The notes under the pieces are model-generated. The model was not told where the DNA came from, did no database searches, and saw nothing but the letters and a program-made list of their open reading frames with translations. Of a stretch of 64,000 nt of DNA, positions 3,563-62,055 are shown piece by piece. Every line of letters starts with the position of its first letter. Within the stretch, counting starts at the first letter, position 1. Position numbers and translations under genes: made by a program. Source of the DNA: a virus; IMG/VR virus record IMGVR_UViG_3300031715_000001, positions 1 through 64,000 of that record; one strand, written 5' to 3'.

Positions 3563-3761
3563 CCGTCCTGCGCTCTCCTGACCACAGGCATCCAGGATGG
3601 GCGGCCTCGGGTAGGGGCATCCTCAGAGCCCGATCTTGTCCGCTCACAAGTAGACCGTTCCTGGATTCCCCTGGCCGATCCTGCGGATAAGTTGGGTTAC
3701 CCGTCTTCGCTTCTGGCCGACGAGCGCGGTGAAGAGGGACGAGTAACCGACCGTTCCGTTT
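3563..3761 (+). repeat. Family A hairpin element carrying nested B and C modules, long tail
   Basis: ccgtcctgcgctctcctg[B/C]acgagcgcggtgaaga..ccgttt. Confidence 0.9.
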
Positions 3762-4212
3762 ATTTGCCCGGCACTGAAGGTTTTACTTCGGTCTTTCGCC
3801 GTGCTTGAGCTTCTGCCAAGGACGGCTCACCCGTCGGAACGCGCCCGGTTAGTTCTTGCAATATTCGCTCCAGTTTTGCGATGTAGGCCAAGGCTTCGGT
3901 GAGCCTGCTGTTGACCAGGATATGAATCTCGCTCTGGGTCTCTTCAATGCCCGCTAGAGCAATGTTGGTTTTACTGGTGGTGGCAACGAGGGCAATGCGT
4001 GCATCCTCGACTTTCATTGCAATCTCGGCCGCCGCGGCTGTCGATTCTTTGTGGGCGGCAATTGTCGCAGCCTCGGTTCTGTCGTGAGCCTCGCGCGCCA
4101 GCTTGGCATTGCGATTCGCAATGAAGGTATTCACCAACGTTGCGATCGGGTTGGCCGCGATCACTCCAAAAGCTGAGATGGCCGCAGCCAGCGGAACATT
4201 GTTCAAATCCAC
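3760..4212 (-). CDS. Membrane-anchored coiled-coil protein (holin/lysis-associated?)
   Basis: N-terminal hydrophobic helix; EIHILVNSRL segment; lysis-block context. Confidence 0.5.
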   Translation of the reverse strand: MDLNNVPLAAAISAFGVIAANPIATLVNTFIANRNAKLAREAHDRTEAATIAAHKESTAAAAEIAMKVEDARIALVATTSKTNIALAGIEETQSEIHILVNSRLTEALAYIAKLERILQELTGRVPTGEPSLAEAQARRKTEVKPSVPGK

Positions 4213-4371
4213 TTAAATACCACCACGGAAAAAGATGAGCAGCAGGAAGATCACCAGCACCAGGCCGATGACGCCGATCCCACCACCAGCACCCCACTGG
4301 GAGTAGCCATACCAACCGCCTCCTCCACCGAAGACCAAGAGCAGGATGATGATCAACAGAATTAATCCCAT
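4213..4371 (-). CDS. Small Gly-rich membrane protein (DUF3309-like)
   Basis: MGLILLIIILLLVFGGGGGWYGYSQWGAGGGIG. Confidence 0.7.
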   Translation of the reverse strand: MGLILLIIILLLVFGGGGGWYGYSQWGAGGGIGVIGLVLVIFLLLIFFRGGI

Positions 4372-4373
4372 GT

Positions 4374-4655
4374 TCAGATTTCCTTTGAGTGTGTGTCCAC
4401 GCAATCGGTGGCGAGTGGCTGATCGGCCAGGAGTTTCACTGGCTGAAGTTTGTTGTTAAACGTCAATTGCTGAAGCCAGACGTCTCCGGTGAAGAGAATT
4501 TGCAGCCGTTCCAACCAAGTTGCATGCCAGCGCGAGGTGACCATACCGTCCGACCTGATTAGAGCGGGGAGTTCCTCGTACTGCGGTTGACCGGCGCCGA
4601 TGTTGCGTTCGGTTAAACCTGCGACTTCGTGGAGTACGGGCGATGCGGGTTTCAT
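4374..4655 (-). CDS. Hypothetical phage protein
   Basis: QPQYEELPA..SRW..W.ERL.ILFTG.VWLQQLTF; coupled to neighbours. Confidence 0.65.
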   Translation of the reverse strand: MKPASPVLHEVAGLTERNIGAGQPQYEELPALIRSDGMVTSRWHATWLERLQILFTGDVWLQQLTFNNKLQPVKLLADQPLATDCVDTHSKEI

Positions 4656-5785
4656 TCGATTATTTCCTTACTACCCTTGGCAATCAGGCTAGCGGCGCGA
4701 GTTGCGGCATTGGCTACCGCGAGCGCGATCCGCTGAGACGACGTCAAGGGAGCGCTGGTCAATTCCGAGGTAAGAGCACTTTGAGCGGCTTCGGACCGCG
4801 CGATCGCGGCGGTGACGTCCGAGACGTACTTGTTCACGTCCGTGATATATACCGTGGAACTGATCGGGGCGGCCGGTGGGACGACGACAGGCGGCGAGAC
4901 GGGAACCGGCGGGGGGACTACGACAACCGGAGGCGTGACGGTGCCACCCATGGAATTGAAATAACCGACCAGCAGCGAATACGTCCCGCTGGGAGCTTTT
5001 TGCGTGGCTTGGTTTGCCCAGTCCGGGTTTAGCACGGTGTACAATTCACCGCCCACCGAAGAGGCGCAATACTTCGCCAGCGCCGCCCACGTCATAATTC
5101 CGATCATGCCCCAGGTGCTGATGATGATTCCTACAGCGGTGTAACCGATCGCGACGACGCAATGACCATTGTTGGGGTCGGGATCGCCCGCTACGTCCCA
5201 AACAAATCCCGATTCGGAAGGGAACGGCGTGATCCAGGCGGCGGGAAGATTTAAGCCCAGTACATTGTCGCCGAACAGCCAAATTGTGCTCTTAACCTGA
5301 GCGACGTTGGTGGGATCGACCGCTAGCCATCCAGCGATCTTGTGAGAGCCGTCGGCGAGCAGCCCGTTTGCCTGCCAGTAGGTCAGGGCGGTGTCGATAT
5401 TGCAACCCTGGTCCGTAGACGGATCGGCGGGATTGAACTCGCCGCCGCTCATTCCCGTGTAGTTAAACTCTGTCTGTGTATCGGTGAAAATGATTGCGGG
5501 ACCGCCAGCATTGCCTGTAAACACGCCGTCGGCATGTTCGGTAGCGGCCGGTACACAGCAACCCAGGACATTATTGAGGTAAATCAGCAGCAGCGCAGCC
5601 ATCGCCTCAGGCGAGTAATCGATGGTCGCCGGAGCAGTCGGCAGGCTTTCGAGCGGAAGATAATCCTTGATCTTGGCGTGCGCCTCTATGATCTCGATTG
5701 GCGTCTGCTTTCTGCCAAAGAAGACACGCCTTCCGGTCAGAGGATGGATGACACTTTTTACTGGCATGATTTTCCTGTCGAGCAA
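4652..5785 (-). CDS. Papain-like cysteine peptidase with Pro/Val linker and helical C-terminal module
   Basis: LNNVLGCC (catalytic Cys), GHCVVAIGY (His), STWG. Confidence 0.7.
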   Translation of the reverse strand: MLDRKIMPVKSVIHPLTGRRVFFGRKQTPIEIIEAHAKIKDYLPLESLPTAPATIDYSPEAMAALLLIYLNNVLGCCVPAATEHADGVFTGNAGGPAIIFTDTQTEFNYTGMSGGEFNPADPSTDQGCNIDTALTYWQANGLLADGSHKIAGWLAVDPTNVAQVKSTIWLFGDNVLGLNLPAAWITPFPSESGFVWDVAGDPDPNNGHCVVAIGYTAVGIIISTWGMIGIMTWAALAKYCASSVGGELYTVLNPDWANQATQKAPSGTYSLLVGYFNSMGGTVTPPVVVVPPPVPVSPPVVVPPAAPISSTVYITDVNKYVSDVTAAIARSEAAQSALTSELTSAPLTSSQRIALAVANAATRAASLIAKGSKEIIE

Positions 5786-5835
5786 AAGATCGGGCTCCTC
5801 TTTGGGGGAAAGAGGAACCCGAGGGGAAGGAAGGC

Positions 5836-6332: not shown

Positions 6333-6460
6333 CCGTTTCGCGCTGCCGACCACTAGCGTTCTGGATGGGTGGCCTTGTCCCGCCGGATAAGCAGGGGTAC
6401 CCGTCTTCGCCCCTGGCCAGCAGCGCGGTGAAGACGGGACGGTAACCGGGCGGTCCGTTT
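6333..6460 (+). repeat. Family A element with nested B, long tail
   Basis: ccgtttcgcgctgc[B]gcagcgcggtgaaga..ccgttt. Confidence 0.9.
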
Positions 6461-6620: not shown

Positions 6621-6632
6621 GAGAGTTCTCCT

Positions 6633-6961: not shown

Positions 6962-7025
6962 CCGTCCTGCGCTCTCCTGTCAACGAGCGCGGAGCACAGG
7001 GAACGCATTACCGGGTGTTCCGTTT
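6962..7025 (+). repeat. Family A element, long tail
   Basis: ccgtcctgcgctctcctgtcaacgagcgcggagca..ccgttt. Confidence 0.9.
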
Positions 7026-7845: not shown

Positions 7846-7908
7846 CCGTCTCGCGCTCTCCTGTCAACGAGCGCGTTGAAGACTGACGAGATCCCGGCCG
7901 TTCCGCTT
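7846..7908 (+). repeat. Family A element, long tail
   Basis: ccgtctcgcgctctcctgtcaacgagcgcgttgaaga..ccgctt. Confidence 0.9.
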
Positions 7909-9389: not shown

Positions 9390-10049
9390 TCACTTCGATA
9401 AAGGACGTGCCCATTCTCTATTGATCGGTACGCCTACGCTGCGTCCCATCATTTCAATATTGACTACCAAGCCCCACTGATCCTTGCCCTTGAACTTGCT
9501 CAATATTCCGATACGTCCAACCAGTGGTCCGCAGATAATCTCGACCTTCTGGCCGATTACAAGCGGAATCGAAGCGCAGGGTAATCCACTCGCTAGCATG
9601 GCCCTTATCGTGTCAATCTCAGCCTCGGTGACGAGCGCCGGCGCTCCCAGGCAGCTCAGAATCTTGACCACTCCGAAGGTCTGCAATATCCGGACACGTT
9701 CCTCGAAATCGAACTTGCAGAAAAGATAGCCGCGAAAGAGCGGGATGTCCAATACGACTTTGCGGTCATGCCACTTTCTCAGCTCTTTGGAGGTTGGTAA
9801 GTAGCGTTCGTAGCCTTTTGATTCCAGATCTTGAGAGACGATGGATGCATGTCTTGGATTGACCAGCAGTACTTTCCAGGGTTGGATCAGTTCATTGTGA
9901 ACGATTGGTTCGTCCGCGCCAATCTGTCGACCAGTGGCATCCGCAAATGGGCGGCCTTGTCCTGCGGATAAGCAGGGGGACCCGCCTTCGCTCGGGCCGA
10001 TGGCGCGAGGTGGAACGCCCGGTGCCCCGGCGATCCGTTCATCCGTCAA
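9390..10049 (-). CDS. NusG paralogue (RfaH/UpxY-like antiterminator); N-terminus formed by an A+B element
   Basis: YLPT..RKWHDRK..PLFRGYLFC (NGN); KVEIICGPLVG (KOW). Confidence 0.88.
   Translation of the reverse strand: MTDERIAGAPGVPPRAIGPSEGGSPCLSAGQGRPFADATGRQIGADEPIVHNELIQPWKVLLVNPRHASIVSQDLESKGYERYLPTSKELRKWHDRKVVLDIPLFRGYLFCKFDFEERVRILQTFGVVKILSCLGAPALVTEAEIDTIRAMLASGLPCASIPLVIGQKVEIICGPLVGRIGILSKFKGKDQWGLVVNIEMMGRSVGVPINREWARPLSK
9911..10040 (+). repeat. Family A element with nested B, long tail
   Basis: cgtccgcgcca..[B]..tggcgcg..ccgg..ccgttc. Confidence 0.8.
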
Positions 10050-10589: not shown

Positions 10590-10635
10590 TCAGGTTTTCC
10601 TTTCATTGAAGACGCTTCTATTTCGCGATCAAAAT

Positions 10636-10761
10636 AAGCGAAACACCGGGGCATGCGTCAGTGTGCTCCGCGCCCGTTCGGCATCGACCGAAGACGGGTG
10701 GCTTATCCGCTGGACAAGGCCGCCCATCCTGGATGCTAGTAGTCAGGAGAGCGCGAGACGG
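10636..10761 (-). repeat. Family A element with nested B, long tail
   Basis: rc ccgtctcgcgctctcctg[B]acgggcgcggagca..cgctt. Confidence 0.9.
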
Positions 10762-10897: not shown

Positions 10898-11479
10898 CTA
10901 GGCGGCCGCTAACATGGATGGACCAGGCGACAGACGGATGATCCGGTCGTATTCATCGCGGAGTTTCTTGACGGCGCGTTTCTTCCGCTGTTTGAATTGC
11001 GAAGGGGAGATATTGAGATCCTTTTGGATCTGTGCATCCGTGCGATGCCCGAAAAACGATTGACGCACGATCTCCCGATTCAGTTCGGGCAGTTTTTCGA
11101 GCAGGCCGTGTAATATTCCTGCACGCTCGGCATCCGATTCCGCGCGTAACAGATCCAGCTCCTCGGTCGGCGGCGTCGCCAGATGTACGGGGAACGGAAT
11201 CACTTTTCTGATGGCGGTCGATCGTGCTTCCAGGGCGTCCGCCCGCAGGATCAGCGCTATTCCACGGGCGTAGGCTATCGGGAAGTCCGGATGTTCGATG
11301 CGGTTCTCCTGGATCGCTTCTAGAACACGCGCGTTCAATTCCTGCAGGAGATCCCTGGCCGTTTCTTTCCCGAGGGAGACGAAAAAGCGTTCGCAGTGAT
11401 TCTTGAGGGCTCCGGCCAGGGCTTTCAATGCTGCCGGCTTGTGGGCCTGAACTCCGTCGTGGATCTCGCGCTCGGTCAA
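10898..11479 (-). CDS. ECF-like sigma factor
   Basis: DLLQE..VLEAI; LEKLPELNREIVRQSF..QIQKDLNISPSQFKQRKKRA. Confidence 0.7.
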   Translation of the reverse strand: MTEREIHDGVQAHKPAALKALAGALKNHCERFFVSLGKETARDLLQELNARVLEAIQENRIEHPDFPIAYARGIALILRADALEARSTAIRKVIPFPVHLATPPTEELDLLRAESDAERAGILHGLLEKLPELNREIVRQSFFGHRTDAQIQKDLNISPSQFKQRKKRAVKKLRDEYDRIIRLSPGPSMLAAA

Positions 11480-12410: not shown

Positions 12411-12857
12411 TTAGCACGCGCTCGCTCTCATCCTCTTCAAAGCCTGGTGTGAAATCACATTCACTGTAATCGTCTTTATCCCGAGCGACCGAGCGATCTC
12501 CTGAGTTCCCTCGCCGGCCGCCAGCCGGTCCACCACCACTCTTTGCCGCGGGCTCAGCCTCAGCATCAGCCTCCGAACGATCCGGCCCCGCTCCTCTGCG
12601 ACGGCCAGCTCCTCGGGAGTGAGACAGGCCGATTGCAGCTCCTGACCGCGCCCGTTGACAGGAGGGCGCGAAACGTTAGAAAGCCCATGATGTAATAAGC
12701 TGGATCCTTCGGATATCCGTACTGGACTCAGTTCCACATGGAACTCATCTTTCCATTCAGACCTTACGAAATCTAGCATTGCTCCCCTAACCCTGTCCCT
12801 TACAAAGGGCCAGAATGGTCCGATAGAAGGTTCATAATACTCAGCTTCCAGTATCAT
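12411..12857 (-). CDS. Sigma region-4/LuxR-type regulator with internal family A hairpin
   Basis: RVRGAMLDFVR (sigma region 2-like); LSPRQRVVV..EIARSLGIKTITV. Confidence 0.7.
   Translation of the reverse strand: MILEAEYYEPSIGPFWPFVRDRVRGAMLDFVRSEWKDEFHVELSPVRISEGSSLLHHGLSNVSRPPVNGRGQELQSACLTPEELAVAEERGRIVRRLMLRLSPRQRVVVDRLAAGEGTQEIARSLGIKTITVNVISHQALKRMRASAC
12647..12675 (-). repeat. Family A hairpin (intragenic)
   Basis: rc cgtttcgcgccctcctgtcaacgggcgcg. Confidence 0.9.
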
Positions 12858-13100
12858 GGCGACTATCCCTATGCCCTCTAAGTCCTTTATTTCGAAGCAG
12901 GGTGGAAGCGTCTTTTTGAGGCGCCGCGCGAGCGTGTGGATACGGCCGAGGTGCTGGATTAGAAACGTGTCCCGTTCGGCTTGGCTCGTAAAGGCTCCTT
13001 AACGGTTCCTTCCCAAGCCGGTCTCAGCGGTTTATGGCATCCTAGCTAGTAGAATCACTAGGTTTAGACCCTAGCCTGTGCTCAATATGGATGGATAGCA

Positions 13101-13631
13101 ATGGGAAGCGGACCGGTGCAGCGAAAGGCCCACAGCCACGCCGATAAGTATTCGACCGTGCTGAAAAACATTCTGCCGGGCCGCCTTTTGCTGCTGAGGA
13201 GGATACACTCGCTTTCCCAGAAGCAGGCCGCCCGGCGCCTAGGCATTGCGGTCTCGACGCTCAACGCAATCGAGGGTGGGCAAGCTAACGATCTCAAGTT
13301 CTCGACGCTCTGCAAGATGTCGGAGTGCTTTCGGGTCTCGATCGACTATCTCTTAGGTTTGGAACGGCAGCAGGACCTAGTCCGCGGCTTCTACGATCAG
13401 GGTGTCTTCCGGTACTACACGATCGAGATTTTCGAGGACGGCAACTCCCCGAGGAAATGCTTCTATTGCGGCTGGCCATTGAACCCTCACCGCTCGCACA
13501 GCATCCCCGAGTGCATGTTGATGATGCACCAACGGAATCAGGACTATCAGTTCATCGCGAATCGCTTTGGGTTCAGCGTGAAAGGTGTTCAGACGATCAT
13601 CGAGGAAGAGATTGGAATACTCAGGTCTTAG
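13101..13631 (+). CDS. XRE-family HTH regulator with C-terminal Cys/His and second HTH-like segment
   Basis: LSQKQAARRLGIAVSTLNAIEGG..FRVSIDYLLG. Confidence 0.85.
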   Translation: MGSGPVQRKAHSHADKYSTVLKNILPGRLLLLRRIHSLSQKQAARRLGIAVSTLNAIEGGQANDLKFSTLCKMSECFRVSIDYLLGLERQQDLVRGFYDQGVFRYYTIEIFEDGNSPRKCFYCGWPLNPHRSHSIPECMLMMHQRNQDYQFIANRFGFSVKGVQTIIEEEIGILRS

Positions 13632-14812
13632 CGGTTTATGGGTGGACGCACTCCCACGACTACAACTTTGTGCCTATGGGATTCGGCGGTATTAACGCAG
13701 ACTGCTTCCGAAGAAGTCTGACTGTCTGCTTCCGGCCAAAGGCGGCGACACGCCTCTAAGATCGACTTCGCGGCGTTCTGGTCCCGGTCGTGAACCTCGC
13801 CGCACTTTTCGCAGGTGATGATCGTCTCCGAGAGAGCGACATCCTGAATATGCCCGCAGCAACTCATGCGTTTGGTGGAAGGATCGAAGCGTGGCATCTG
13901 AGCGAACAGACGGCCATATTTTTCGCAAAGCCATTTCTGTTTCAACAGATAACTCGAAAATCCGAGGTCGCTGACCTTACGACCCCAAAGAGCCTTCATA
14001 CCGGAAATATTTAGGTCCTCAAAAGCCAACGCGTCAAAGCGACTCGCCAAATCATACGCCGTCTTCCAGTGAAAATGCCGGCGCTTATTGGCTAACGAAC
14101 GATGAAGCCGTGCCACATTCAGACGCGCTCTTCGGCGCGAATTGCCGCCTTTCGCTTTGCGGGAAAGGCTTCGGCTGGCACTCCTCAATTGCCTGAGAGC
14201 GTGCTTGAGCGGTTGCGGAGAAACGATTTTCTCTCCGCTGGAAAGCGTGAGGAAGTTCCTTAACCCAAAATCCGCGCCTGTGGTTTTACCAGTCTTGACG
14301 AGAGGTTCGGGTATCGGAACTTCCGCACACGAGAAGGATACGAAATATCGCCCGGTTGTGTCCCGGCTGATTGTGACGGTTTTGATCATGCCGAGCACTG
14401 CGCGCGATTGATGAAACCGGTAGAGACGCCCTTGAATACGTAATCTGCCGGGGCCAAGCAGTTTCCAACCGTTCTGCTTTAGTGTGAAACTCTTGTACTT
14501 ACGGCGGGCGCGAAAGGTCGGCGGGCGTTTGATTTCCTTTTTGAAGAAGGCATCCCATGCACGGTACATCCGGTCAGTTACGGCCTGCACGGCTTGGCAG
14601 TCCACTAGCCTCCAATGCTGAAAGCGCGTGCGGCGTAGTTTTGCGAGATGCCGCTGGAGATGACTCTGCTTGAGCGTCTTATGAAAGATCTTGTAGTAGC
14701 GCCGATGGAGTGCCACCGAGTGGTTCCAGATATGAGCGGAGACATCAATCGTGCGGCTCAAATGCTTCGTTCGCCCGGACCTCATTAACTGAAACTTGAA
14801 TGATTGCCTCAT
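13628..14812 (-). CDS. tnpB: TnpB (IS200/IS605 family RNA-guided nuclease), no TnpA nearby
   Basis: RuvC motifs GADFG, FEDL, DRDQNAA; Zn finger CC..CEKC. Confidence 0.93.
   Translation of the reverse strand: MRQSFKFQLMRSGRTKHLSRTIDVSAHIWNHSVALHRRYYKIFHKTLKQSHLQRHLAKLRRTRFQHWRLVDCQAVQAVTDRMYRAWDAFFKKEIKRPPTFRARRKYKSFTLKQNGWKLLGPGRLRIQGRLYRFHQSRAVLGMIKTVTISRDTTGRYFVSFSCAEVPIPEPLVKTGKTTGADFGLRNFLTLSSGEKIVSPQPLKHALRQLRSASRSLSRKAKGGNSRRRARLNVARLHRSLANKRRHFHWKTAYDLASRFDALAFEDLNISGMKALWGRKVSDLGFSSYLLKQKWLCEKYGRLFAQMPRFDPSTKRMSCCGHIQDVALSETIITCEKCGEVHDRDQNAAKSILEACRRLWPEADSQTSSEAVCVNTAESHRHKVVVVGVRPPINR
13642..13760 (-). ncRNA. Predicted omega-RNA scaffold / element right end of TnpB 1 (5' limit approximate)
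   Basis: GAATCCCA..GTCGTGGGAGTGCGTCCA resembles IS605-type right ends (GAATCCCACG..CGTGGGAG..TCAA). Confidence 0.55.
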
Positions 14813-16966: not shown

Positions 16967-17004
16967 CTCCCCCAGCGCTGCAACTACAGGGCAGCGCGAG
17001 ACGG
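16967..17004 (-). repeat. Family A element, short GGGG tail
   Basis: rc ccgtctcgcgctgccctgtagttgcagcgctggggg. Confidence 0.85.
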
Positions 17005-17556: not shown

Positions 17557-17919
17557 CTACAGTTTCTTCGTCGGCTTCTGTTCTTCTTCAGGCAGCGGAA
17601 ATAGAAAGGGAAGCTCGATCGACTCGCCCGATTTCAAAACGTCTACGCTGAAGTGCAGCGGATCATCGGTGTGCATGACGCAACCTGGCTGCAAGCTTCC
17701 GTCTTGTTCCCGAAAGAACTTTTCCTTCCTCTCATATCCTGGTAAACACTTACCTTCTTTTAAATGAGTTATTGAGCAGCACCAAGGTTCTGGTTCTTTT
17801 GAACATGCTATTAAGAATGTAAAAAGAGCGAGTATGAAGATCTTCCGTCTCGTGCCGCACTGTAATAGCGGCACGGAGCAAGAGGCGCTCATCCCCCGGC
17901 TGTCCGTTTGTTCGCTCAT
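17557..17919 (-). CDS. Putative lipoprotein with family A-derived N-terminus
   Basis: KIFILALFTFLIAC lipobox. Confidence 0.55.
   Translation of the reverse strand: MSEQTDSRGMSASCSVPLLQCGTRRKIFILALFTFLIACSKEPEPWCCSITHLKEGKCLPGYERKEKFFREQDGSLQPGCVMHTDDPLHFSVDVLKSGESIELPFLFPLPEEEQKPTKKL
17845..17909 (+). repeat. Family A element, long tail
   Basis: ccgtctcgtgccgcactgtaatagcggcacggagca..ccgttt. Confidence 0.85.
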
Positions 17920-18145: not shown

Positions 18146-18433
18146 TCACGCTCCTGCTCTCCGCACATGAACGGATTGCTCAGGTATCGACTTCGCTACT
18201 ACGCACCCGTTTACAGGAGGGTGCGAGACGTTCGATTGCCTTACTGTCCTGAAATATTCCACCAAATCAGTCCAGCGTGAACACCTTGCGCGACACTCTG
18301 CATGTTTACAGGTTCTGATATGAGTTGTGTACTCTTTGATCGAAACACCTTCGGGGTCGAAGCCGCATTGAAATCTGAGGTCCAGTGGATGGCAAGACTG
18401 TGTCTTTGAAAGTTCGAAGATGGACTGTTTCAT
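18146..18433 (-). CDS. Hypothetical protein; C-terminus from family A hairpin
   Basis: Lower-GC ORF between two A copies. Confidence 0.5.
   Translation of the reverse strand: MKQSIFELSKTQSCHPLDLRFQCGFDPEGVSIKEYTTHIRTCKHAECRARCSRWTDLVEYFRTVRQSNVSHPPVNGCVVAKSIPEQSVHVRRAGA
18202..18230 (-). repeat. Family A hairpin (intragenic)
   Basis: rc cgtctcgcaccctcctgtaaacgggtgcg. Confidence 0.85.
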
Positions 18434-18456: not shown

Positions 18457-18520
18457 CGTTTCGTGCCCTCCTGGCAACGGGCACGGAGCAACATCGTTCT
18501 ACCCCCCCGGCGCTCCGTTT
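18457..18520 (+). repeat. Family A element, long tail
   Basis: cgtttcgtgccctcctggcaacgggcacggagca..ccgttt. Confidence 0.9.
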
Positions 18521-19532: not shown

Positions 19533-19569
19533 CCGTCTCGCGCTCTCCTGGCAACGGGCACGTTGGGGA
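19533..19569 (+). repeat. Family A element, short tail
   Basis: ccgtctcgcgctctcctggcaacgggcacgttgggga. Confidence 0.9.
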
Positions 19570-22446: not shown

Positions 22447-22482
22447 CGTTTCGTGCCCTCCTGACAACGGGCACGTTGGGAA
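22447..22482 (+). repeat. Family A element, short tail
   Basis: cgtttcgtgccctcctgacaacgggcacgttgggaa. Confidence 0.9.
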
Positions 22483-22486: not shown

Positions 22487-23059
22487 TCAGCGGAAGCTTG
22501 GCTCGTCCCAGCGCTCGACTACGAACATCTGGTCCGGCGCGGACTTAAGCCTCACGCCCAAGAACGGATCGATCTTTTCGCCCAGAGCCGCAACGTAGAA
22601 GGACACCTTATCGCCCAACTTCTCAACGATGGAATCGGCCGTCATCAATACTGGAAGTGGAACGATCTCGGGATAGAGCTGCGTCGAGAAAGATCCTGAG
22701 TCGCGGCTCCAACTATAGTCCCCGATACGGCGCCTCTCGGTGTCCTGCGTTCGAATCACATTTTGATCGCTGGCACGCAAGGGATACCAGTGCCACTCCC
22801 GTCTGGCGTCCTCCGCTTTCTTAGTCATGAAGGCTTCGACCTGGTCGAAATCGTAGATGCGCGCGCCTATTTCCTCGAGAACGGACACCAGCGCTCGCAC
22901 CCCCGTTCCAGAGATGGTGCGTACCCCTAATTTTGCCGCGAGCCTTTGGTGCTCCAGCAGTATGGAATCGTTCTCATCGTAGGTCGCGAGCGGTTTAGTT
23001 CGACGCAGACCGTCCTTAATGACTTCGCCGGTTTGGTCTTTTGATTTTGAAAATAACAT
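22487..23059 (-). CDS. Hypothetical phage protein
   Basis: DPFL..VVERWDEPSF C-terminus; AAGGAG RBS; bracketed by A copies. Confidence 0.7.
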   Translation of the reverse strand: MLFSKSKDQTGEVIKDGLRRTKPLATYDENDSILLEHQRLAAKLGVRTISGTGVRALVSVLEEIGARIYDFDQVEAFMTKKAEDARREWHWYPLRASDQNVIRTQDTERRRIGDYSWSRDSGSFSTQLYPEIVPLPVLMTADSIVEKLGDKVSFYVAALGEKIDPFLGVRLKSAPDQMFVVERWDEPSFR

Positions 23060-23079
23060 TCGACGTTCTCCTTTCAATT

Positions 23080-23142
23080 AAGCGAACTGCCGGGGCGTCG
23101 GCCCCTCTTCACCGCGCTGCAACTCCAGGGCAGCGCGAAACG
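23080..23142 (-). repeat. Family A element, long tail
   Basis: rc cgtttcgcgctgccctggagttgcagcgcggtgaaga..cgctt. Confidence 0.9.
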
Positions 23143-24727: not shown

Positions 24728-25147
24728 TCATGCTCTTTTCCTCAATTTATTAACACCTGTGGAAATAACAGACTTCTTATTCGGTATGGCAGTCACATTC
24801 CTCGATCTAACAGTTAGTACCCGTTGAACAACTGAAATGAAGTACTGGAGATCATTCGTCTTCACGATCACGCCCTTAGCCGGATCAGCCGGTCGAATAG
24901 TCTCCCATCTCAGTACGTAAAGTTCATCCACGTGACTCACTCGGCCATACCAACAAAGTTGAGAGGATGCGTCCAGGCGCACACACTTCCTCGGGTGCTT
25001 CAATAGTTTCTCTATTTCCACCGTGACTAAATCAATCTGCGGTTTCATTGCCTTACTTACACTGAGACCCTTGCTCCGTCTCGTGCCCTCCTGGAGCACG
25101 GGCACGTTGGGGATCAGGTCTCGACCTATTGGCTGGTTCATGGCCAT
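24728..25147 (-). CDS. Hypothetical protein; N-terminus includes family A
   Basis: ORF coupled to neighbours. Confidence 0.5.
   Translation of the reverse strand: MAMNQPIGRDLIPNVPVLQEGTRRSKGLSVSKAMKPQIDLVTVEIEKLLKHPRKCVRLDASSQLCWYGRVSHVDELYVLRWETIRPADPAKGVIVKTNDLQYFISVVQRVLTVRSRNVTAIPNKKSVISTGVNKLRKRA
25076..25113 (+). repeat. Family A element, short tail
   Basis: ccgtctcgtgccctcctggagcacgggcacgttgggga. Confidence 0.9.
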
Positions 25148-25152: not shown

Positions 25153-25581
25153 TCAGGGCCGTCCACTGCTGCGCGCCATCATTCGCTCGGTTTTCGGACC
25201 GCCGTTCAGGCGCACATTGATACCGCGTGCTATTTGCTTGCCAAGGTCGGTCAGCGAGAATAGATATTTGGTATCGTGACGGTCCCGGTCAGTCGTTAGC
25301 CGTTCCAGATCGTGCATTGCCTGATGCACCTTCACCTCATCCTTCAAAATAAAGCCCGCCTTCGCCCGCTTCCAACATTCACTGATCTTAAGTGCGGTGT
25401 CCTTTTCCTCGCTCAATTCGGTACGCCGCAAGATGCCAAGTTCCGCCAAAGCATTGCAGTGGTAATCGCCTGGCATAGGCTTGCCGGCGACCGTGAGACG
25501 AATAATCCATCGGGTCTCTTCGACCGACAGTCGGATCGGTGTCGTTTCAATTGGTGACTCGTTCTTCGTTTCGTTTTTCAC
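25153..25581 (-). CDS. Hypothetical protein (wHTH-like)
   Basis: LAELGIL..SLTDLGKQIA; AAGGAG RBS. Confidence 0.6.
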   Translation of the reverse strand: MKNETKNESPIETTPIRLSVEETRWIIRLTVAGKPMPGDYHCNALAELGILRRTELSEEKDTALKISECWKRAKAGFILKDEVKVHQAMHDLERLTTDRDRHDTKYLFSLTDLGKQIARGINVRLNGGPKTERMMARSSGRP

Positions 25582-25601: not shown

Positions 25602-25665
25602 AAACGGACTACCGGGGAACCCACCCCCTCCTCACCGCGCCCGTTGACAGGAGGGCGCGAAACGG
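25602..25665 (-). repeat. Family A element, long tail
   Basis: rc ccgtttcgcgccctcctgtcaacgggcgcggtgagga..ccgttt. Confidence 0.9.
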
Positions 25666-32450: not shown

Positions 32451-33361
32451 TAATTAGGCCTCAAGTTTTGTACGTCTCGCGCCAATCTGGCATATGGCGC
32501 GTTGGGGATCAGCCACCCTTCATCCCTTGTGGGCGACCGGTGAATGATCGCCGGCCTAGCCCATTTGCGTTGAAAGTTTTCCCATTCTGGACCGGGTCGG
32601 TGCTTCTCCGCGCTTTGCGTTTCCGGTTGCCAAAGCATCGCGTGTGGCGTGAAGCCGATCGCCACCATGTCGCTGAGCCTTTTCTCCGCGAGCGTGAACG
32701 TGTCCTTGGGATAGCCGATCAGCACATAACACCGTAGCCGATGCGAGCAGGCCGTAAATCCCGCTGCCAGCATCCGATCAGCAGCACTCTTCAGCGTTTC
32801 GAATGGGTCTCCGGGATCATAAGCGAAAAAACAATTCGGTCGCGGCTTCAAGTCCGCGAGTAGCCCGACCTGATAATCCTGGAGGGCTAAAGCTTCTAGG
32901 CCGCCGGTGAATTCGACACGCCGCCCTTGACGCGCCAGCATGGCGAACACCGCACGCACATGAGGTTCTGGGCAGGCGAGCAGGTTATCGTCGAGAATGT
33001 TCCAACCGTCCTGGATTTGGAGCAATCGCGGAACTGGGTCACGCTTCCAGACTGAACAAAACCAGCAACGCCTCGGGCAGCCACGAGATGTAAAAGTGTA
33101 GCCATGCTTGATGTATCGGCCAGGAACGAACTCGCGACCAGGATCGCCGTATGCAACGCCGCCAATCTTTACTGGCGCGATATGCGTCCATTGCTCCGCT
33201 AAAGTCTCCGCCTTGGGCTTGTCTAGCGTGAAGGTGACATCCAGATGAACTTCGTCGACCCCGGAGAAGGCTTCGGGGAAAAGATTCGGCGGCGGACCGT
33301 AGAAGGCCAGCGCATCATCAGGCGTCGCCTTGTTCCTTCGCGGAAACACGCGGGCCAATTT
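32450..33361 (-). CDS. Radical SAM protein (start approximate, near LARVFPRR)
   Basis: TSRGCPRRCWFC, ILDDNLL, FAYD, CYVLIGY. Confidence 0.85.
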   Translation of the reverse strand, partial: KLARVFPRRNKATPDDALAFYGPPPNLFPEAFSGVDEVHLDVTFTLDKPKAETLAEQWTHIAPVKIGGVAYGDPGREFVPGRYIKHGYTFTSRGCPRRCWFCSVWKRDPVPRLLQIQDGWNILDDNLLACPEPHVRAVFAMLARQGRRVEFTGGLEALALQDYQVGLLADLKPRPNCFFAYDPGDPFETLKSAADRMLAAGFTACSHRLRCYVLIGYPKDTFTLAEKRLSDMVAIGFTPHAMLWQPETQSAEKHRPGPEWENFQRKWARPAIIHRSPTRDEGWLIPNAPYARLARDVQNLRPN

Positions 33362-33401: not shown

Positions 33402-33438
33402 CTCCCCCAGCGCCGCAACTCCAGGGCGGCGCGAAACG
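33402..33438 (-). repeat. Family A element, short tail
   Basis: rc cgtttcgcgccgccctggagttgcggcgctggggg. Confidence 0.88.
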
Positions 33439-34133: not shown

Positions 34134-34591
34134 ACAACAGCCGATTCTTCCATTTTCCCGTTTCGCGCGCTCCTGTCAACGCGCGCGTTGAAGATTGCGG
34201 GCTCTTCCCGAGCGCTCCGCTCATTATCCCGGAGTCTCAGTTCCGCCCGGACCATAGGAATCAAGCGGCAGCGGCGCTCGGCATCGTCTTTCCCTAGGGA
34301 GCCAAAGGCGCGTTCAGCTTCGCCAGCTCCTTCCAACATGCGCGCTCGACATAGATGATCGAGGAAGCGAGCAAATTCTGGATTATTCTGGTATTCTCTA
34401 ACGAAGGCGACGCCAGCGGCATAGGCCGGTCGCAAAGCGTGTGATGCGGTGCGGCTTCCGATTAAGCAGCAGCAACTATAGAAACCGAGCTTGCCATCCT
34501 GGGCGTGGGCGAGTAACGCAGCCAACCAGGAATCCGGTCCGGATCTCAGCCAGGCGCGGATAGGAATCTTGAGTTCTTGAATTCTGGTCAC
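34130..34591 (-). CDS. Hypothetical protein; C-terminus from family A
   Basis: LLAHAQDGKL..SCCCLIG; coupled. Confidence 0.6.
   Translation of the reverse strand: MTRIQELKIPIRAWLRSGPDSWLAALLAHAQDGKLGFYSCCCLIGSRTASHALRPAYAAGVAFVREYQNNPEFARFLDHLCRARMLEGAGEAERAFGSLGKDDAERRCRLIPMVRAELRLRDNERSAREEPAIFNARVDRSARNGKMEESAVV
34158..34222 (+). repeat. Family A element, long tail
   Basis: ccgtttcgcgcgctcctgtcaacgcgcgcgttgaaga..ccgctc. Confidence 0.88.
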
Positions 34592-36237: not shown

Positions 36238-36270
36238 CGTCCGCACCCTCCTGTCAACGGGTGCGAGCAC
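36238..36270 (+). repeat. Family A hairpin
   Basis: cgtccgcaccctcctgtcaacgggtgcgagca. Confidence 0.8.
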
Positions 36271-36332
36271 TCATGTCGGGGGGCCCGTGCAGTCCGGTCA
36301 TGTGCACGCAGATCCGGGTTTTCGGGCGCGAG

Positions 36333-36369
36333 TCCCCAACGTGCCGCAACTCCAGGGCGGCACGAGACG
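36333..36369 (-). repeat. Family A element, short tail
   Basis: rc cgtctcgtgccgccctggagttgcggcacgttgggga. Confidence 0.9.
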
Positions 36370-38061: not shown

Positions 38062-38070
38062 AGCATCCTC

Positions 38071-38106
38071 TCCCCCAGCGCGGCGACTCCAGGGCCGCGC
38101 GAAACG
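38071..38106 (-). repeat. Family A element, short tail
   Basis: rc cgtttcgcgcggccctggagtcgccgcgctggggga. Confidence 0.85.
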
Positions 38107-38112: not shown

Positions 38113-38508
38113 TCATTTCCTTCTGACCGTAACCAGACAATTCATTCGACTCAGATCATGTCCCGGATACTGGTTTAATTCGCCGGCGAGTTCGTTATAG
38201 TCAGAGCAAAGACTTCGCCATTCCCGCATGGCTCTTACTGCTGTGGCATTGGATCGTTGGGTATTTGAATTCGCTTCATCGACCAGTTTACGGAAGGATC
38301 CGACAGTTGCTTCGTTGCGGGCCATTACTTCGTCAACCTGCTTGTTGAGCCCGTCGAACTTCCCGTTCAGCTCCTTGAATAGCCTGCCGTATTCAACGAC
38401 CTCGTGCGTGAGCGGCCGCACTTCAATCCAGTTGCAGAGGTTCCAGCCCATGAATAGCCAGGCTATGGAGCTTGTGAAATATCGGAAGAGACCAAACCGG
38501 GAACTCAC
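38113..38508 (-). CDS. Membrane-anchored coiled-coil protein
   Basis: N-terminal TM then heptads. Confidence 0.5.
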   Translation of the reverse strand: MSSRFGLFRYFTSSIAWLFMGWNLCNWIEVRPLTHEVVEYGRLFKELNGKFDGLNKQVDEVMARNEATVGSFRKLVDEANSNTQRSNATAVRAMREWRSLCSDYNELAGELNQYPGHDLSRMNCLVTVRRK

Positions 38509-38960
38509 GAGGCCTGTCGCTCCGCCTCCCTTGTCGAACTCTCCATGGATTTCCTTCGGCGCGCCGATTCAATGTAACATTCCCGGAAGAACACCAAGGT
38601 TCGGCTGGCCGCTTGCCTAATACCAATTGCCAGTGGTCCCACGATGTACTCCTCCGATCCCAGTTGGGCGACGTACTTCCCGTTCCGAATGGATAACTGA
38701 GGCTTCTCGGTCAGCCGCGCGATCACGGCGTTCAGATCGATTCCATAGTGAGCCTCGAATTTACGCCGGCCTTTGTCCAAAGCGAATTTGTCGATTCTGT
38801 GATGCAGATGGCATAGCGGAACAACTTGAGTGTCTGACGCCTTCTGGGACGTTCCGTGTGGCCCTACATGACAAGGGTCAACCCATCGTTGGCAACCGTG
38901 TACAAGGCACGGTAATGATTTTATGAACGCGAGATGAGACTTGTTACGTGATGGCTTCAT
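38505..38960 (-). CDS. DUF968/HNH-like nuclease
   Basis: HLAFIKSLPCLV..DPCHV..KASD..VPLC..HH. Confidence 0.75.
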   Translation of the reverse strand: MKPSRNKSHLAFIKSLPCLVHGCQRWVDPCHVGPHGTSQKASDTQVVPLCHLHHRIDKFALDKGRRKFEAHYGIDLNAVIARLTEKPQLSIRNGKYVAQLGSEEYIVGPLAIGIRQAASRTLVFFRECYIESARRRKSMESSTREAERQAS

Positions 38961-39733: not shown

Positions 39734-39796
39734 AAACGGATCGTCCGGTCATCGGCAGCCTCTTCACCGCGCCGTATGCCAGATCGGCGCGAGGCG
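39734..39796 (-). repeat. Family A element, long tail
   Basis: rc cgcctcgcgccgatctggcatacggcgcggtgaaga..ccgttt. Confidence 0.85.
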
Positions 39797-40615: not shown

Positions 40616-41772
40616 GGCACGATACCTCGCATCAGTTGATCAAGCGTTTGATGCTCCCAAAGCGGGATTTCTGATGTCACGCCATAGGCATGTACCTTCT
40701 CGTGGCTCCATCCGAGCCCGGAAATGAGCGCGTTACGAGCGGCGTTAACGTCCCGCTCGTGGTGAGCACCACAGGCCCCGCAGTACCATTCCCTTACCTT
40801 GAGTCCTGCTAAGCCTATTGGACCAGTTAAGGCCCCACAGGTAGAACAGGTCCTCGTGGAATTCCGATTCTCGGGGAAGATCAGTTCCGTACCGCCGATA
40901 AGGCTCTTGTACGAAAGCATGATCCTCAACCCGCCGTGGCCACTATCGCCAACGGATTTTCCAAAACGCTTCGCTATCGCCCGATGATTATCCTTGAGAA
41001 AACAGATCGTCTTGTTCTCCGCTACTAACCGGCGCGACAGCTTGTGGTTCCGATCCCTGCGGCGATTCTTGGCCCGCTCCTGTAAACGATTGGCTAGATG
41101 CCTATTCCAGCCGCGTTGGGCTTGTCCAAATCGCTTCTCGATCTTTCTGAATTCCCGCGGGTGCGATAGCTTTTCGCCGGTACTCAGCGTGACCAGATCT
41201 TTGAAGCCGGGATCAATACCGACGCTAGCTTCGGCGATCCGCCCGATAGCTTTTGGCTGAGCATCGATAAACAGACACAGATACCAGCCGGAAGCGCGTT
41301 TGACAATCCGCCCGCACTTGATTCTGCCCTCAGGAATCCATTGCTTGTGAAAGCCCACCCGTCCAATTCCCTGAATTCCGATCTTGCCGTCCTTGGGACG
41401 CCTCATCGGATCGGGGAACGGAATGGAGTTGAGCGGACGGCGCATTCCTTTAAGTCTCGGCTTGCGCGCCAACCCCTTGAAACAGCGCTGCCACGACATG
41501 TGAACGGTCGAGAGCACCCCCTGTATCGTGTGGCTGGGAATGCCCAAACGCTCACAGTGCCCTGCCAATAGATTGTGGAAGTCTCGCGCCGAAAAGTAAA
41601 TCTTATCTCGCGCGTTTAGCTCGATCTTCCGTAATCCGAAGTTCCAGACCGATCCAAGTATAGGAAGCCAGGAAGACAGAAGCTTCTCCTGTCGCCGATT
41701 CAGCCTGAGCTTGAGTTGATATTGAATCACTGTACTGACGATCATGCTAACATAGCGCGGGCAAGTACGCAA
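40612..41772 (-). CDS. tnpB: TnpB-like protein with atypical RuvC-II (start probably ~41745)
   Basis: VGIDPG, CSTC..CGAC, HERDVNAA; ICFLKDN in place of the EDL motif. Confidence 0.88.
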   Translation of the reverse strand: MRTCPRYVSMIVSTVIQYQLKLRLNRRQEKLLSSWLPILGSVWNFGLRKIELNARDKIYFSARDFHNLLAGHCERLGIPSHTIQGVLSTVHMSWQRCFKGLARKPRLKGMRRPLNSIPFPDPMRRPKDGKIGIQGIGRVGFHKQWIPEGRIKCGRIVKRASGWYLCLFIDAQPKAIGRIAEASVGIDPGFKDLVTLSTGEKLSHPREFRKIEKRFGQAQRGWNRHLANRLQERAKNRRRDRNHKLSRRLVAENKTICFLKDNHRAIAKRFGKSVGDSGHGGLRIMLSYKSLIGGTELIFPENRNSTRTCSTCGALTGPIGLAGLKVREWYCGACGAHHERDVNAARNALISGLGWSHEKVHAYGVTSEIPLWEHQTLDQLMRGIVP

Positions 41773-42356: not shown

Positions 42357-42413
42357 CGCGTATAAAACGGAACGCCGAGGTATCGGACAATCTTCACCGC
42401 GGCATATTACAGA

Positions 42414-43148
42414 TTGCCGCGAGACGGAGGACAAGAAAAAGTGACTGGCAAAAGCTTAGTGTTTTTGTGCTGTGCGATCGCGCACACACAACCACTCGTC
42501 AACTCTCTCGTAGTCCGATCGGTAACGGTGACACCCACCGAAATCAGCGCGGACCTACTCAACACATCCGGCCTAAGCATCACCGCTGGATCGATCCAGC
42601 TCACCACCACCACCGAAACGCAACAGCCCACGGTACAGAAGCTTTCGTTTGAATTGATCTGGAGCACCAATCTGGACGACTTGCGGGCGCCCTACGCAGC
42701 CAAATACCCGGCGAGTATGCAATTTGGCCCTATCCTTCCCAATGCGGTTTATCACTGGCGGCATCCCAACACCAACCCGCCCGCGAAAACCGCCGACGTA
42801 AAAGTGACCGCGGTGATCTTTTTGGGCGGCAAGGAAGAGGGCGATCCGCTGCGTACCATCCCGCTATTCGTGGCGCGCGCGCAGATGACCGGCGAATTAA
42901 CTTATTGGGCCAAGGCCATCGATTCCGTCCACACGCTGGCCCAGCTCGAAACCTTGCTCAGCCATCCGCGAACGCCGGCCGACGCGACTACGGCGGCCGT
43001 GATTCTTAGTACGCTGCGCAGCGTGCCCGCATCCGTGAGCGCTGGGGTGATGACCGAAGGAGCGGGTTTGAACTACGTCCAGGTATATCTAAAGCGAATG
43101 CTGTCCACGTTGGAAGTCGAATCGGTCCGCAAAGGAGGCCAGCAATGA
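42414..43148 (+). CDS. Exported protein of unknown function (start probably GTG ~42441)
   Basis: KSLVFLCCAIAHTQ leader. Confidence 0.55.
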   Translation: MPRDGGQEKVTGKSLVFLCCAIAHTQPLVNSLVVRSVTVTPTEISADLLNTSGLSITAGSIQLTTTTETQQPTVQKLSFELIWSTNLDDLRAPYAAKYPASMQFGPILPNAVYHWRHPNTNPPAKTADVKVTAVIFLGGKEEGDPLRTIPLFVARAQMTGELTYWAKAIDSVHTLAQLETLLSHPRTPADATTAAVILSTLRSVPASVSAGVMTEGAGLNYVQVYLKRMLSTLEVESVRKGGQQ

Positions 43149-60459: not shown

Positions 60460-61266
60460 ATGCAAACCAATATTACACCTGCGCTCAGTTGGCACATCCA
60501 GGATATTTCCGGGCAGACCTTTGGAGCGCTCATCGTCGAAGAATTTAGTCATGTTGGAAAGAGACATACGACCTACTGGAAATGCCGTTGCGCATGCGGG
60601 GTGGTGAGAACCATCCGTCAGGACCAATTGAAAGCGGGCCAGCCCTGCAAGGCTTGCTATGTGGGGCAGAAGAGGGAACGAGTACTAGCGAGGATGGAAA
60701 AGCGCTGCAGTGTCTGCCATCAGACGCTTCCGCTATGCGGGTTCAATAAGGACAATCAATACACGGGGCGGATCAGTTCCCGCTGCAAGGCCTGCGCCAT
60801 AGAAATGCAAATACGACAGAGGGAGAGAATAAAGGTCCTAGCCCTTCAAAGGCAAAAGCGGAGAGCGTCAGAGTCCGCGTTGGAAGAAAAACTCTGCCCG
60901 AAATGCCACAAGACCAAACCGGTTGGAGACTTTTGGAAAACTAAGCAGACCGTTCATGGGCTAACGTCCCGGTGTAAGGAGTGCCTAGTAGCAGACGATC
61001 GCGAACGAAAATTCGGTCTTACTCCAGAAGCGCTGCAGTCTATGTCGAAGTCGCAAGGGAACTGTTGTTATGTCTGTCACAGTCCTTTTTCCGGCCCTCA
61101 CACAAGAGCAATAGACCATTGTCATGAGTCTGGATTGGTTCGCGGGCTATTATGCCCACAGTGCAATCTTGGACTCGGGTGTTTTCGTGACTCGCCTGAC
61201 CGACTCCGGGCCGCCGCTCTCTATATCGAGAAATGGCTGGAGCGGCGCGCCACCCCTGCGGCGTAA
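60460..61266 (+). CDS. Recombination endonuclease VII-family (homing-type) nuclease
   Basis: QGNCCYVC..IDHCHESGLVRGLLCPQCNLGLG..D; N-terminal GQTFGAL..WKCRCACG; AGGAGG RBS. Confidence 0.9.
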   Translation: MQTNITPALSWHIQDISGQTFGALIVEEFSHVGKRHTTYWKCRCACGVVRTIRQDQLKAGQPCKACYVGQKRERVLARMEKRCSVCHQTLPLCGFNKDNQYTGRISSRCKACAIEMQIRQRERIKVLALQRQKRRASESALEEKLCPKCHKTKPVGDFWKTKQTVHGLTSRCKECLVADDRERKFGLTPEALQSMSKSQGNCCYVCHSPFSGPHTRAIDHCHESGLVRGLLCPQCNLGLGCFRDSPDRLRAAALYIEKWLERRATPAA

Positions 61267-61308
61267 GCTAAATGCAGGTGTTAGGGATGAACCGGGATGA
61301 TCTTGTAG

Positions 61309-61707
61309 CTATTTCTTCTCGGGCGTAGGGGGCTTATTCCACCACACGTGCGGCGTTACGGGCCGCCCCTCCGGGCCCTTTAGCAACTTTCCATCCGGGC
61401 CGAATCCGCTGACTCCGCATTCCGGGGTCTTTATCTTGTCCTTGGGGACGCCCACCGATTCACAAGCTTTCGCTACCATCGCTTGCTGATCAGCGATCAC
61501 GGGATCGATCTCATTGTGATAGTCGTCGATCTTGTAATTCTTGTTGATCAGATTGATTTGAGAGATCGTGAAGGCTAAGTGATAGGTCTCTTCGTCGGTG
61601 AAATCTCTTCCATTCGATGATTTCTCGGTTTGCTTCGGAACTACTGATTTCGGTTCCTGAGCATAAATAAGTGATGTCAAAAGTGTAAGTAAAATCAAAA
61701 GCTTCAT
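61309..61707 (-). CDS. Exported protein of unknown function
   Basis: Signal peptide MKLLILLTLLTSLIYA. Confidence 0.6.
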   Translation of the reverse strand: MKLLILLTLLTSLIYAQEPKSVVPKQTEKSSNGRDFTDEETYHLAFTISQINLINKNYKIDDYHNEIDPVIADQQAMVAKACESVGVPKDKIKTPECGVSGFGPDGKLLKGPEGRPVTPHVWWNKPPTPEKK

Positions 61708-61723
61708 GCTTTTTCCTTTCGTG

Positions 61724-61760
61724 CGTCTCGTGCGCTCCTGGAACCCGCGCACGTTGGGGA
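61724..61760 (+). repeat. Family A element, short tail
   Basis: cgtctcgtgcgctcctggaacccgcgcacgttgggga. Confidence 0.85.
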
Positions 61761-61764
61761 TTAG

Positions 61765-62055
61765 TTATTTCGTATCGTCAGCAGCGCATGGAAACTGGTG
61801 CTCTGGAAACTCGGCAGGATCGCCGGGATACTCACCACCGCAGTTTTCGCAGTAGGTGACCGTCTCGTACGAGTCGGCCACGTCAGGAGGCCCACCAGCA
61901 CGCTGACTCTTCCATTTATGCTCCATCTCGCCAGTCTCCCACGTGCCCGTCGGCATCGAGCGAAGACGGGTCCCCGTACTTATCCGCAGGATAAGGCCGG
62001 GTATCCAGGATGCGAGTGGACGAGGGCACGAAACGCACGATAGCCTCAATTCCAT
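61765..62055 (-). CDS. Small Zn-ribbon protein bracketed by A copies
   Basis: HKW..YCENCGGE; start abuts upstream stop. Confidence 0.5.
   Translation of the reverse strand: MELRLSCVSCPRPLASWIPGLILRISTGTRLRSMPTGTWETGEMEHKWKSQRAGGPPDVADSYETVTYCENCGGEYPGDPAEFPEHQFPCAADDTK
61936..62035 (-). repeat. Family A element with nested B, short tail
   Basis: rc cgtttcgtgccctcgt[B]acgggcacgtgggag. Confidence 0.88.

Follow-up and report, generated by a model that had tools for sequence, protein, structure and literature searches.

A dispersed hairpin repeat at the edges of exchangeable small genes in soil phages

The window analyzed here is the first 64 kb of a 106,688-bp IMG/VR virus record (IMGVR_UViG_3300031715_000001; 97% complete according to CheckV). 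It carries many copies of a short hairpin element at gene boundaries, named family A, which also occurs in other phage genomes. The data support that family A is evolutionarily mobile DNA located at the edges of exchangeable small genes. Copies have been homogenised or multiplied within each genome, and the element was carried into an open reading frame (ORF) in frame at least once. The favored explanation, to which we give about an even chance, is a phage-borne insertional repeat similar to repetitive extragenic palindromic (REP) sequences, their REPIN doublets and Rickettsia palindromic elements (RPE), which is co-transcribed with its neighbors and forms doublets bracketing exchangeable cargo. 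An earlier note on the window, made from the sequence alone, had proposed a mobile or gene-shuffling hairpin belonging to a gene-cassette/recombination system. Mobility in evolution and the location at the edges of exchangeable small genes were supported; a dedicated system of this kind was not.

The phage encodes a P22-like portal and coat as well as a 3151-aa multidomain virion protein, and nearly all of its genes are on the minus strand. A whole-genome search for the foot of the element followed by a perfect hairpin gave ~38 clear members of family A. An alignment of 39 copies (A1) was used to build the covariance model R1. Four complete phages, G002 (45 kb), G006 (44 kb), G007 (38.6 kb) and G008 (86 kb), were used for comparison.

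Structure of the element

The unit of family A is ~37 nt long and consists of the foot CGTYTYG, a stem of 7-9 bp, a loop of 7-11 nt with an invariant CTG, and a purine-rich tail resembling a Shine-Dalgarno site. The A1 consensus reads nnTTTnGTn-CGTYTCG-YGCnn-nCTG-loop-nnGCRCG-TTGGGGA. The CG of the foot, the second stem base and the CTG of the loop are invariant across A1, and foot and CTG are so irrespective of orientation. The remaining stem sequence varies from copy to copy while pairing is kept.

Covariation was evaluated for the eight stem pairs of A1. In total, 88.8% of the cells were paired compared to 70.1% in shuffles, two-sided changes were found in 59 cells (16.7 in shuffles), and the covariation score was 0.527 (0.182 in shuffles, 0.06-0.15 in slid controls). 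None of 500 shuffles matched any of these observed values, hence the covariation read from the sequence earlier is real. Watson-Crick pairs make up 717 of 749 stem cells (95.7%), with exceptions almost only in the closing pair; for the inner pairs, the value is ~99%. The stems align gap-free and have no extrahelical bases as found in attC sites. Predicted folding energies are about -16 to -19 kcal/mol for the RNA hairpins and about -9 kcal/mol for the DNA hairpins. An additional outer helix between the flank of the foot and the tail was considered and dismissed, since only 49.7% of its positions are paired.

The two tail types described before, short and long, are seen in the alignments. The long tail, present in 19 copies, is conserved (GTGAAGAG...CCGG...TCCGTTTAT) and constitutes a second module of ~45 nt; the long form starts after TCCGTYT and ends in TCCGTTT. 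Besides hairpin 1, no conserved pairing or consensus structure was detected for the long tail. Five copies of the window are large-loop variants, with a structured insert of 75-140 nt between the arms of the usual stem, next to the usual foot and tail; the insert was never found standing alone. The large-loop module (B plus C) at 3576-3709(+) is 94% identical to a 135-nt stretch at 40430-40564(-). The latter is contained in a doubtful 193-aa ORF and begins ~50 nt downstream of a TnpB gene (40612-41772), where a TnpB guide-RNA scaffold would be expected.

Copies and distribution

At E ≤ 0.011, R1 recovers 25 copies in the window and 44 in the whole genome, i.e., ~19 further copies are located beyond the window. 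The motif is present at every one of the 25 positions listed in the earlier note: 20 are standard copies (R1 E ≤ 7e-4) and five are the large-loop variants. Three good copies had been overlooked (1871(+), 32473(+) and 42391-42426(-)). As stated there, copies occur in both orientations without poly-T, and the tail-gene block at 44.7-60.3 kb is free of them, its sole R1 match having 12 bits and E = 0.6.

Using pattern and R1, 22 copies were found in G006, 19 in G007, 25 in G008 and three in G002, and 22 soil or peat metagenome contigs carry family A. In several compact phage genomes, the family makes up ~2-4% of the sequence. G002, G006, G007 and G008 form a lineage of mutually related phages that is unrelated to the 106,688-bp phage and has only three protein families in common with it. 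Some copies are 95-100% identical between phages whose proteins are ~50% identical or unrelated. For 70% of the copies, the nearest neighbor comes from the same genome, compared to 25% in shuffles (maximum 38%); this genome-wise clustering indicates concerted evolution or spread within genomes. Viral contigs searched via a 584-aa protein or the sigma-factor homolog P0007 did not yield close relatives. G002 additionally contains ten copies of another dispersed motif, TTCAGAGCGCGAACGC followed by a 5-bp hairpin and AGAAGAG (e.g., 2239, 9716, 15599 and 37792; loci L062-L064), whose first part resembles half of the family A reverse complement.

Bacterial genomes are nearly devoid of the element. 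The strict pattern matched two contigs in 596 Gb of representative genomes. A 7.4-Mb Bryobacterales genome (G005) has one true copy, which directly follows a stop codon, and a Gemmatimonadales genome has zero true copies. For the genomes searched, an origin as a host REP family was rejected based on the near-absence of the strict pattern from representative genomes and the single copy in the Bryobacterales genome. In Rfam, the only match was tRNA-like (30681-30733), both at the gathering score and at E ≤ 1 over positions 1-44000.

Inverted doublets and their cargo

Tail-to-tail pairs separated by less than 700 nt are 2.5-fold enriched in four genomes (25 observed, 9.9 ± 2.4 in orientation shuffles, p < 1e-4), and the same genomes contain seven foot-to-foot and seven direct pairs. 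Doublets have a plus copy followed by a minus copy with tails pointing inward, enclose 30-900 nt and are often placed around one small ORFan. The cargo is made up of ORFans, in one case of a radical-SAM gene, or of ~170 nt devoid of ORFs; no homology was found when cargos were compared with one another. Empty pairs with 29-60 nt between the members also occur. The radical-SAM cargo at 32450-33400(-) (phrog_9298, E = 1.8e-17) is the sole cargo with a recognizable family.

Turnover is visible at orthologous sites. The junction of gene families F12 and F20 (own labels) is element-free in G002, contains an empty pair in G006 and, in G008, a pair enclosing a 53-aa ORF. For two more orthologous pairs of G006 and G008, the elements are kept, one of them being identical over ~45 nt, the cargo is unalignable, and the flanking genes are ~70% identical. 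The site behind F15 carries a sense copy in G006 and G008 and a displaced antisense copy in G002; G007 has none. The hairpin subfamily is often unlike at orthologous sites. The earlier note had suggested to look for mosaic breakpoints at the elements in related phages: cargo is indeed replaced inside kept pairs, which was seen only between ~70%-identical phages. The doublets mark the replacement of small accessory genes and may also mediate it.

Short ORFs, at 9421-9451 in G006 and 36116-36359 in G008, begin at the Shine-Dalgarno tail that the left element provides, cross the right antisense element and stop at a TAA overlapping the ATG of the next gene. These read-through ORFs may represent translational coupling across the doublet.

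Position relative to genes and transcript features

Copies sit in short gaps between stop and start codons in either orientation (42 sense, 32 antisense) and occasionally within genes. In a naive test using longest ORFs, 20 of 43 copies were 'inside' (36 expected), a weakly informative figure as these ORFs are over-extended across the elements. Two features depend on orientation. A T at the closing position, giving a U.G pair in RNA, is present in 14/30 sense and 3/28 antisense copies (Fisher p = 0.0036), and a Shine-Dalgarno sequence with a start codon follows the tail in 18/30 sense and 4/28 antisense copies. The tail of antisense copies typically abuts the preceding stop codon. As U.G closing pair and Shine-Dalgarno/start are nearly confined to sense copies, the sequences imply that the hairpin would fold in mRNA. 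The orientation-dependent features show that the element, once in place, would work or be tolerated as an mRNA hairpin with the ribosome-binding site of the next gene. These features point to folding of the transcript, which the earlier note had not taken into account. Its proposal of a hairpin read at the DNA level by a dedicated system is not supported.

A scan for σ70-type promoters gave 11 sites (9.6 expected); two overlap elements, only in the subfamily with TTGACA in the loop. In both orientations, the hairpin lacks a downstream T run, and the scan for intrinsic terminators was at chance. These results bear on a very unlikely explanation, namely that family A is an operator, promoter or terminator for one trans-acting factor (a phage sigma factor, a stoperator-type repressor or an RNA-binding protein) and has no role in gene flux. 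The phage does possess three ECF-like (extracytoplasmic function) sigma factors, and many phages own repeated intergenic motifs, e.g., L081 and the second family in G002. However, G006 (22 copies) and G007 (19 copies) lack a sigma factor, orientation is mixed, both scans are at chance, and stem covariation speaks against recognition of a double-stranded sequence. A promoter for a phage-encoded sigma factor in particular was excluded by the absence of PF04542 from the carriers G002, G006 and G007.

A 194-aa sigma factor contains the copy at 12640-12675 in frame, between its domains Sigma70_r2 (residues 14-82) and Sigma70_r4 (residues 139-191). In the alignment, five more distant homologs are devoid of ~25-27 residues exactly at the position of the element, and the closest homolog has SSVSCPPVNGHV at the place of SNVSRPPVNGRG in the phage. 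The R-to-C and R-to-H differences may correspond to a compensatory stem change from C-G to T-A, and SCALLEHGH in a third homolog could be another subfamily translated in another frame; these readings of the linker peptides are based on protein sequences. Two degenerate copies are located inside the 3151-aa ORF (L001:1158-10613, genome positions 65158-74613, minus strand), which has transglycosylase, histidine phosphatase, FtsK-gamma and 2'-5' RNA ligase/Acb1-like domains. They look as if separate genes had once been fused across elements.

A possible alternative, to which we give a clearly minor share, is a cis-acting punctuation without transposition, resembling the promoter early stem-loops (PeSL) of T4-type phages. 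Hairpin and Shine-Dalgarno tail would then be a selected attenuator or mRNA stabilizer at gene boundaries, and, as the signal is repeated, ordinary homologous recombination between co-infecting phages would swap the flanked genes and homogenize the copies. The location between stop and start codons and the tail acting as Shine-Dalgarno site are in line with this idea, as are the enrichment in accessory regions beside ORFans, the positions conserved between G006 and G008, the lack of an element-specific enzyme and the precedent of T4-type PeSLs (PMC2839356, PMC4122927). It does not account for the lack of a promoter or terminator consensus, about equally frequent orientations, the copy within the sigma-factor linker and the sharing of the family by phages with almost no other homology. 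Furthermore, an RNA hairpin alone would not need foot and loop CTG to be invariant irrespective of orientation.

Search for a trans-acting enzyme

The earlier note had named no identifiable enzyme in the window. A serine and a tyrosine recombinase, two TnpB proteins and a DUF968/HNH-like nuclease are present, none of them tied to the element; a HUH (Y1) enzyme, for which a search had been suggested, is missing from the phage. The resolvase and TnpB of the phage have no BLAST counterparts in G006-G008. Only two protein families are common to all five carriers: the DUF968/HNH-like nuclease P0001 and one domain of the 3151-aa virion protein. P0001, also found in fragment G001, is the sole enzyme-like candidate among the common proteins. 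As cognate enzyme it was discarded, because 60 of the 64 viral loci with homologs are element-free, including the best-scoring ones; the other four are the four known carriers.

In a cassette scheme, the doublets would be the ends of a new phage gene cassette, and the bracketed segment would be excised and inserted by an enzyme that recognizes the hairpin, possibly the DUF968/HNH nuclease or a factor of the host. We regard this as unlikely. Its strict form, in which a specific recombinase or nuclease (integron-like, HUH-like or DUF968/HNH) would act on the folded single-stranded DNA hairpin to excise and insert the bracketed segment, is considered quite improbable. Inverted doublets around variable cargo, empty doublets, near-perfect Watson-Crick stems and the DUF968/HNH-like gene in all five carriers and G001 would fit. 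The element-free DUF968 loci, the missing tyrosine recombinase in the four comparison phages and the missing Y1 enzyme do not, and target-site duplications are lacking. In addition, the orientation is unlike that of attC arrays, and the DNA hairpins are weak (about -9 kcal/mol with 7-9 bp stems and 7-11 nt loops). An integron-like system is not supported.

Derivatives of IS200/IS605 ends, similar to palindrome-associated transposable elements (PATE), could be moved by TnpA in trans and be related to the two TnpB genes of the window. Both TnpB genes, the TCCGTYT/TCCGTTT borders of the long form, which resemble a target and right-end cleavage site, and the copy of the large-loop module 50-180 nt downstream of the second tnpB would be explained. 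This origin is nevertheless highly improbable: Y1 TnpA is lacking in the phage, BLAST finds no TnpB in G006-G008, the long form has two dissimilar hairpins, and inverted pairs in mixed orientation do not fit a strand-specific single-strand transposition.

Evaluation of the favored explanation

That family A is a propagating DNA repeat is indicated by the invariant foot and CTG, the spread across lineages, genome-specific variants, positional turnover and the in-frame copy. According to the proposed mechanism, element DNA would spread by insertion or ectopic conversion via some enzyme, perhaps in trans; ordinary recombination functions of co-infecting phages may suffice. The inserted hairpin would fold in the polycistronic mRNA, where a sense copy would give the next gene its ribosome-binding site and an antisense copy would make a 3' hairpin behind the preceding stop codon. 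Conserved doublets would provide portable homologous edges for the exchange of small accessory genes between phages.

Several results weigh against this explanation. No target-site duplications were found around 26 pairs. Pair partners are not each other's nearest copies (median rank 0.78), which argues against simple terminal inverted repeats arising together. Between G006 and G008, several elements have kept position and orientation at ~70% flanking identity, which could equally be caused by selection for a cis function. At nucleotide resolution, no site was observed to be filled in some and empty in other members of a population. A Y1/HUH transposase (PF01797) had no match in the 97%-complete phage, with positive controls; tyrosine recombinases (PF00589) are absent from G002, G006, G007 and G008, and sigma factors (PF04542) from G002, G006 and G007. 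A transposase or recombinase common to all carriers was not found. Finally, the gene calls are crude and were made for this analysis.

Comparison with known systems

The closest analogs are REP/REPIN, RPE and miniature inverted-repeat transposable elements (MITE), and PeSL, and family A fits the full definition of none of them. Bacterial REP sequences and REPIN doublets are mobilized by REP-associated tyrosine transposases (RAYT; PMC3116915, PMC3337134). Like family A, they are intergenic palindromes of 35-45 nt with a conserved unpaired head and occur in both orientations, as inverted doublets, in genome-specific variants and as co-transcribed hairpins. In contrast, family A is found in phage genomes with at most one copy in the searched bacterial genomes, RAYT/Y1 was not found, its doublets enclose up to 900 nt including ORFs, and its tail doubles as ribosome-binding site.

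T4-type PeSLs are likewise intergenic stem-loops followed by a Shine-Dalgarno sequence and start codon, are located in plastic regions flanking ORFans and are sites of gene replacement between related phages. They contain a σ70 early promoter and a working terminator and are direct repeats along the direction of transcription (PMC2839356, PMC4122927). Family A has no promoter or terminator consensus, and differs by mixed orientation, inverted pairs, covarying stems and cross-phage sharing.

Rickettsia RPEs and other prokaryotic MITEs are small palindromic repeats, too, which are able to sit in frame in coding genes, as family A does in the sigma linker (PMC10969869). RPEs are ~100-150 bp long, mostly intragenic and chromosomal, whereas family A has 37-80 nt, is mostly intergenic and shows no terminal inverted repeats with target-site duplication. 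Such repeats and duplications, which characterize MITEs, are lacking, and partners are no more alike than non-partners.

Integron attC sites are folded imperfect palindromes bounding promoterless gene cassettes, a likeness to family A, yet their single orientation, extrahelical bases, R and L boxes and adjacent IntI have no counterpart in family A. The same is true for Y1 TnpA and the left and right end hairpins on the same strand characteristic of IS200/IS605/PATE.

Mycobacteriophages have short repeats of a phage-specific type at gene starts, or small insertions that are mobile, and are comparable to family A in this respect. Their ultra-small mobile elements (MPMEs) are ~440 bp long and carry their own ORF; the start-associated sequences of cluster K have one orientation and no covarying hairpin.

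Features of the window

Coordinates of all copies and of the nuclease gene are given in Table 1.

Table 1. Family A copies and the candidate enzyme gene in the window
Feature	Position	Strand	Remarks
Element, long tail to ~1940	1871..1906	+	R1 49.5 bits; in A1 and A3; new compared to the earlier note
Large-loop variant (modules B and C inside stem), long tail	3564..3734	+	Direct reading; R1 only 11.8 bits
Large-loop variant (module B), long tail	6334..6434	+	R1 19.1 bits
Element, long tail, GAGCA type	6963..6998	+	R1 38.4 bits
Element, long tail, TTGAAGA type	7847..7882	+	R1 55.1 bits
Large-loop variant (module B)	9911..10013	+	Direct reading; not recovered by R1
Large-loop variant (module B), mismatched outer stem, long tail	10625..10760	-	Direct reading; not recovered by R1
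Element, in frame in sigma2-sigma4 linker of ECF-like sigma gene 12411-12995(-)	12640..12675	-	R1 55.3 bits
Element, sense; tail GGGGGAGA is Shine-Dalgarno for GTG start at 16957	16967..17003	-	R1 48.7 bits
Element, long tail; left partner of 18195-18230	17846..17882	+	R1 45.7 bits
Element; right partner of 17846-17882	18195..18230	-	R1 49.1 bits
Element, long tail	18457..18492	+	R1 53.6 bits
Element, short tail; stem with two mismatches	19534..19569	+	R1 53.6 bits
Element, short tail abutting stop of 22487-23077(-); left pair member	22447..22482	+	R1 57.9 bits
Element, long tail, then Shine-Dalgarno and ATG; right pair member	23106..23142	-	R1 59.5 bits
Element, short tail; left member of pair around 25153-25581(-)	25077..25113	+	R1 61.3 bits
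Element, long tail, then Shine-Dalgarno and GTG; right member of pair around 25153-25581(-)	25629..25664	-	R1 60.7 bits
Element, short tail; 3' end of radical-SAM ORF, adjoins integrase start; left pair member	32473..32508	+	R1 54.5 bits; new compared to the earlier note
Element, GGGGGAGA tail; right partner of 32473-32508	33402..33438	-	R1 48.5 bits
Element, long tail	34159..34194	+	R1 52.3 bits
Weak element; left member of 'empty' pair, 60 nt between members	36238..36272	+	R1 25.5 bits
Element; right member of empty pair	36333..36369	-	R1 58.6 bits
Element; 37 nt identical to copy on metagenome contig L023	37172..37208	+	R1 55.4 bits
Element; tail is Shine-Dalgarno for ATG at 38061	38070..38106	-	R1 43.5 bits
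Element, long tail	39761..39796	-	R1 48.1 bits
Element, long tail	42391..42426	-	R1 47.3 bits; new compared to the earlier note
Element, short tail; left member of pair around 53-aa ORF	61724..61760	+	R1 61.4 bits
Large-loop variant (module B); right partner of 61724-61760	61935..62035	-	R1 34.6 bits over 125 nt
DUF968/HNH-like nuclease gene P0001; candidate enzyme, element link unsupported	38505..38960	-	In all five carrier phages

The three ECF-like sigma-70 family proteins are encoded at 12411-12995(-), 978-1541(-) and 10898-11479(-). The two TnpB genes (OrfB_IS605/Cas12f-like) are located at 13628-14812(-) and 40612-41772(-); the phage has no TnpA. A small serine recombinase of resolvase/invertase size is encoded at 2137-2736(-), and an N6/N4 DNA methylase and a C5 cytosine methylase at 25916-27304(-) and 27312-28802(-), respectively.

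The tyrosine recombinase/integrase at 31335-32450(-) is more likely a phage integrase than IntI, because a tRNA-like fragment adjoins. This fragment (Rfam, 30681-30733(-), 40.5 bits) is ~600 bp away from the integrase gene, and ARAGORN makes no call for it. Contigs of a soil run stack exactly on the fragment, reaching depth 71 and having loose ends at either side. The fragment is probably an attP core matching a host tRNA gene. Assembly of one DNA run gave only short pieces of low depth without informative joints at elements.

Significance

Short palindromic repeats are well studied in bacterial chromosomes and hardly described in phages; in a 2024 review of prokaryotic MITEs, the word "phage" is absent (PMC10969869). 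Family A supplies ribosome-binding sites, can enter proteins and brackets positions at which ORFans are replaced. If the cassette scheme were true, soil phages would have an integron-like market of small accessory genes across lineages. If the doublets mediate exchange, this would explain how small accessory genes can pass from one soil phage to an unrelated one with no need for dedicated recombinases, and the element would be a sequence tag for finding such accessory genes in metagenomes.

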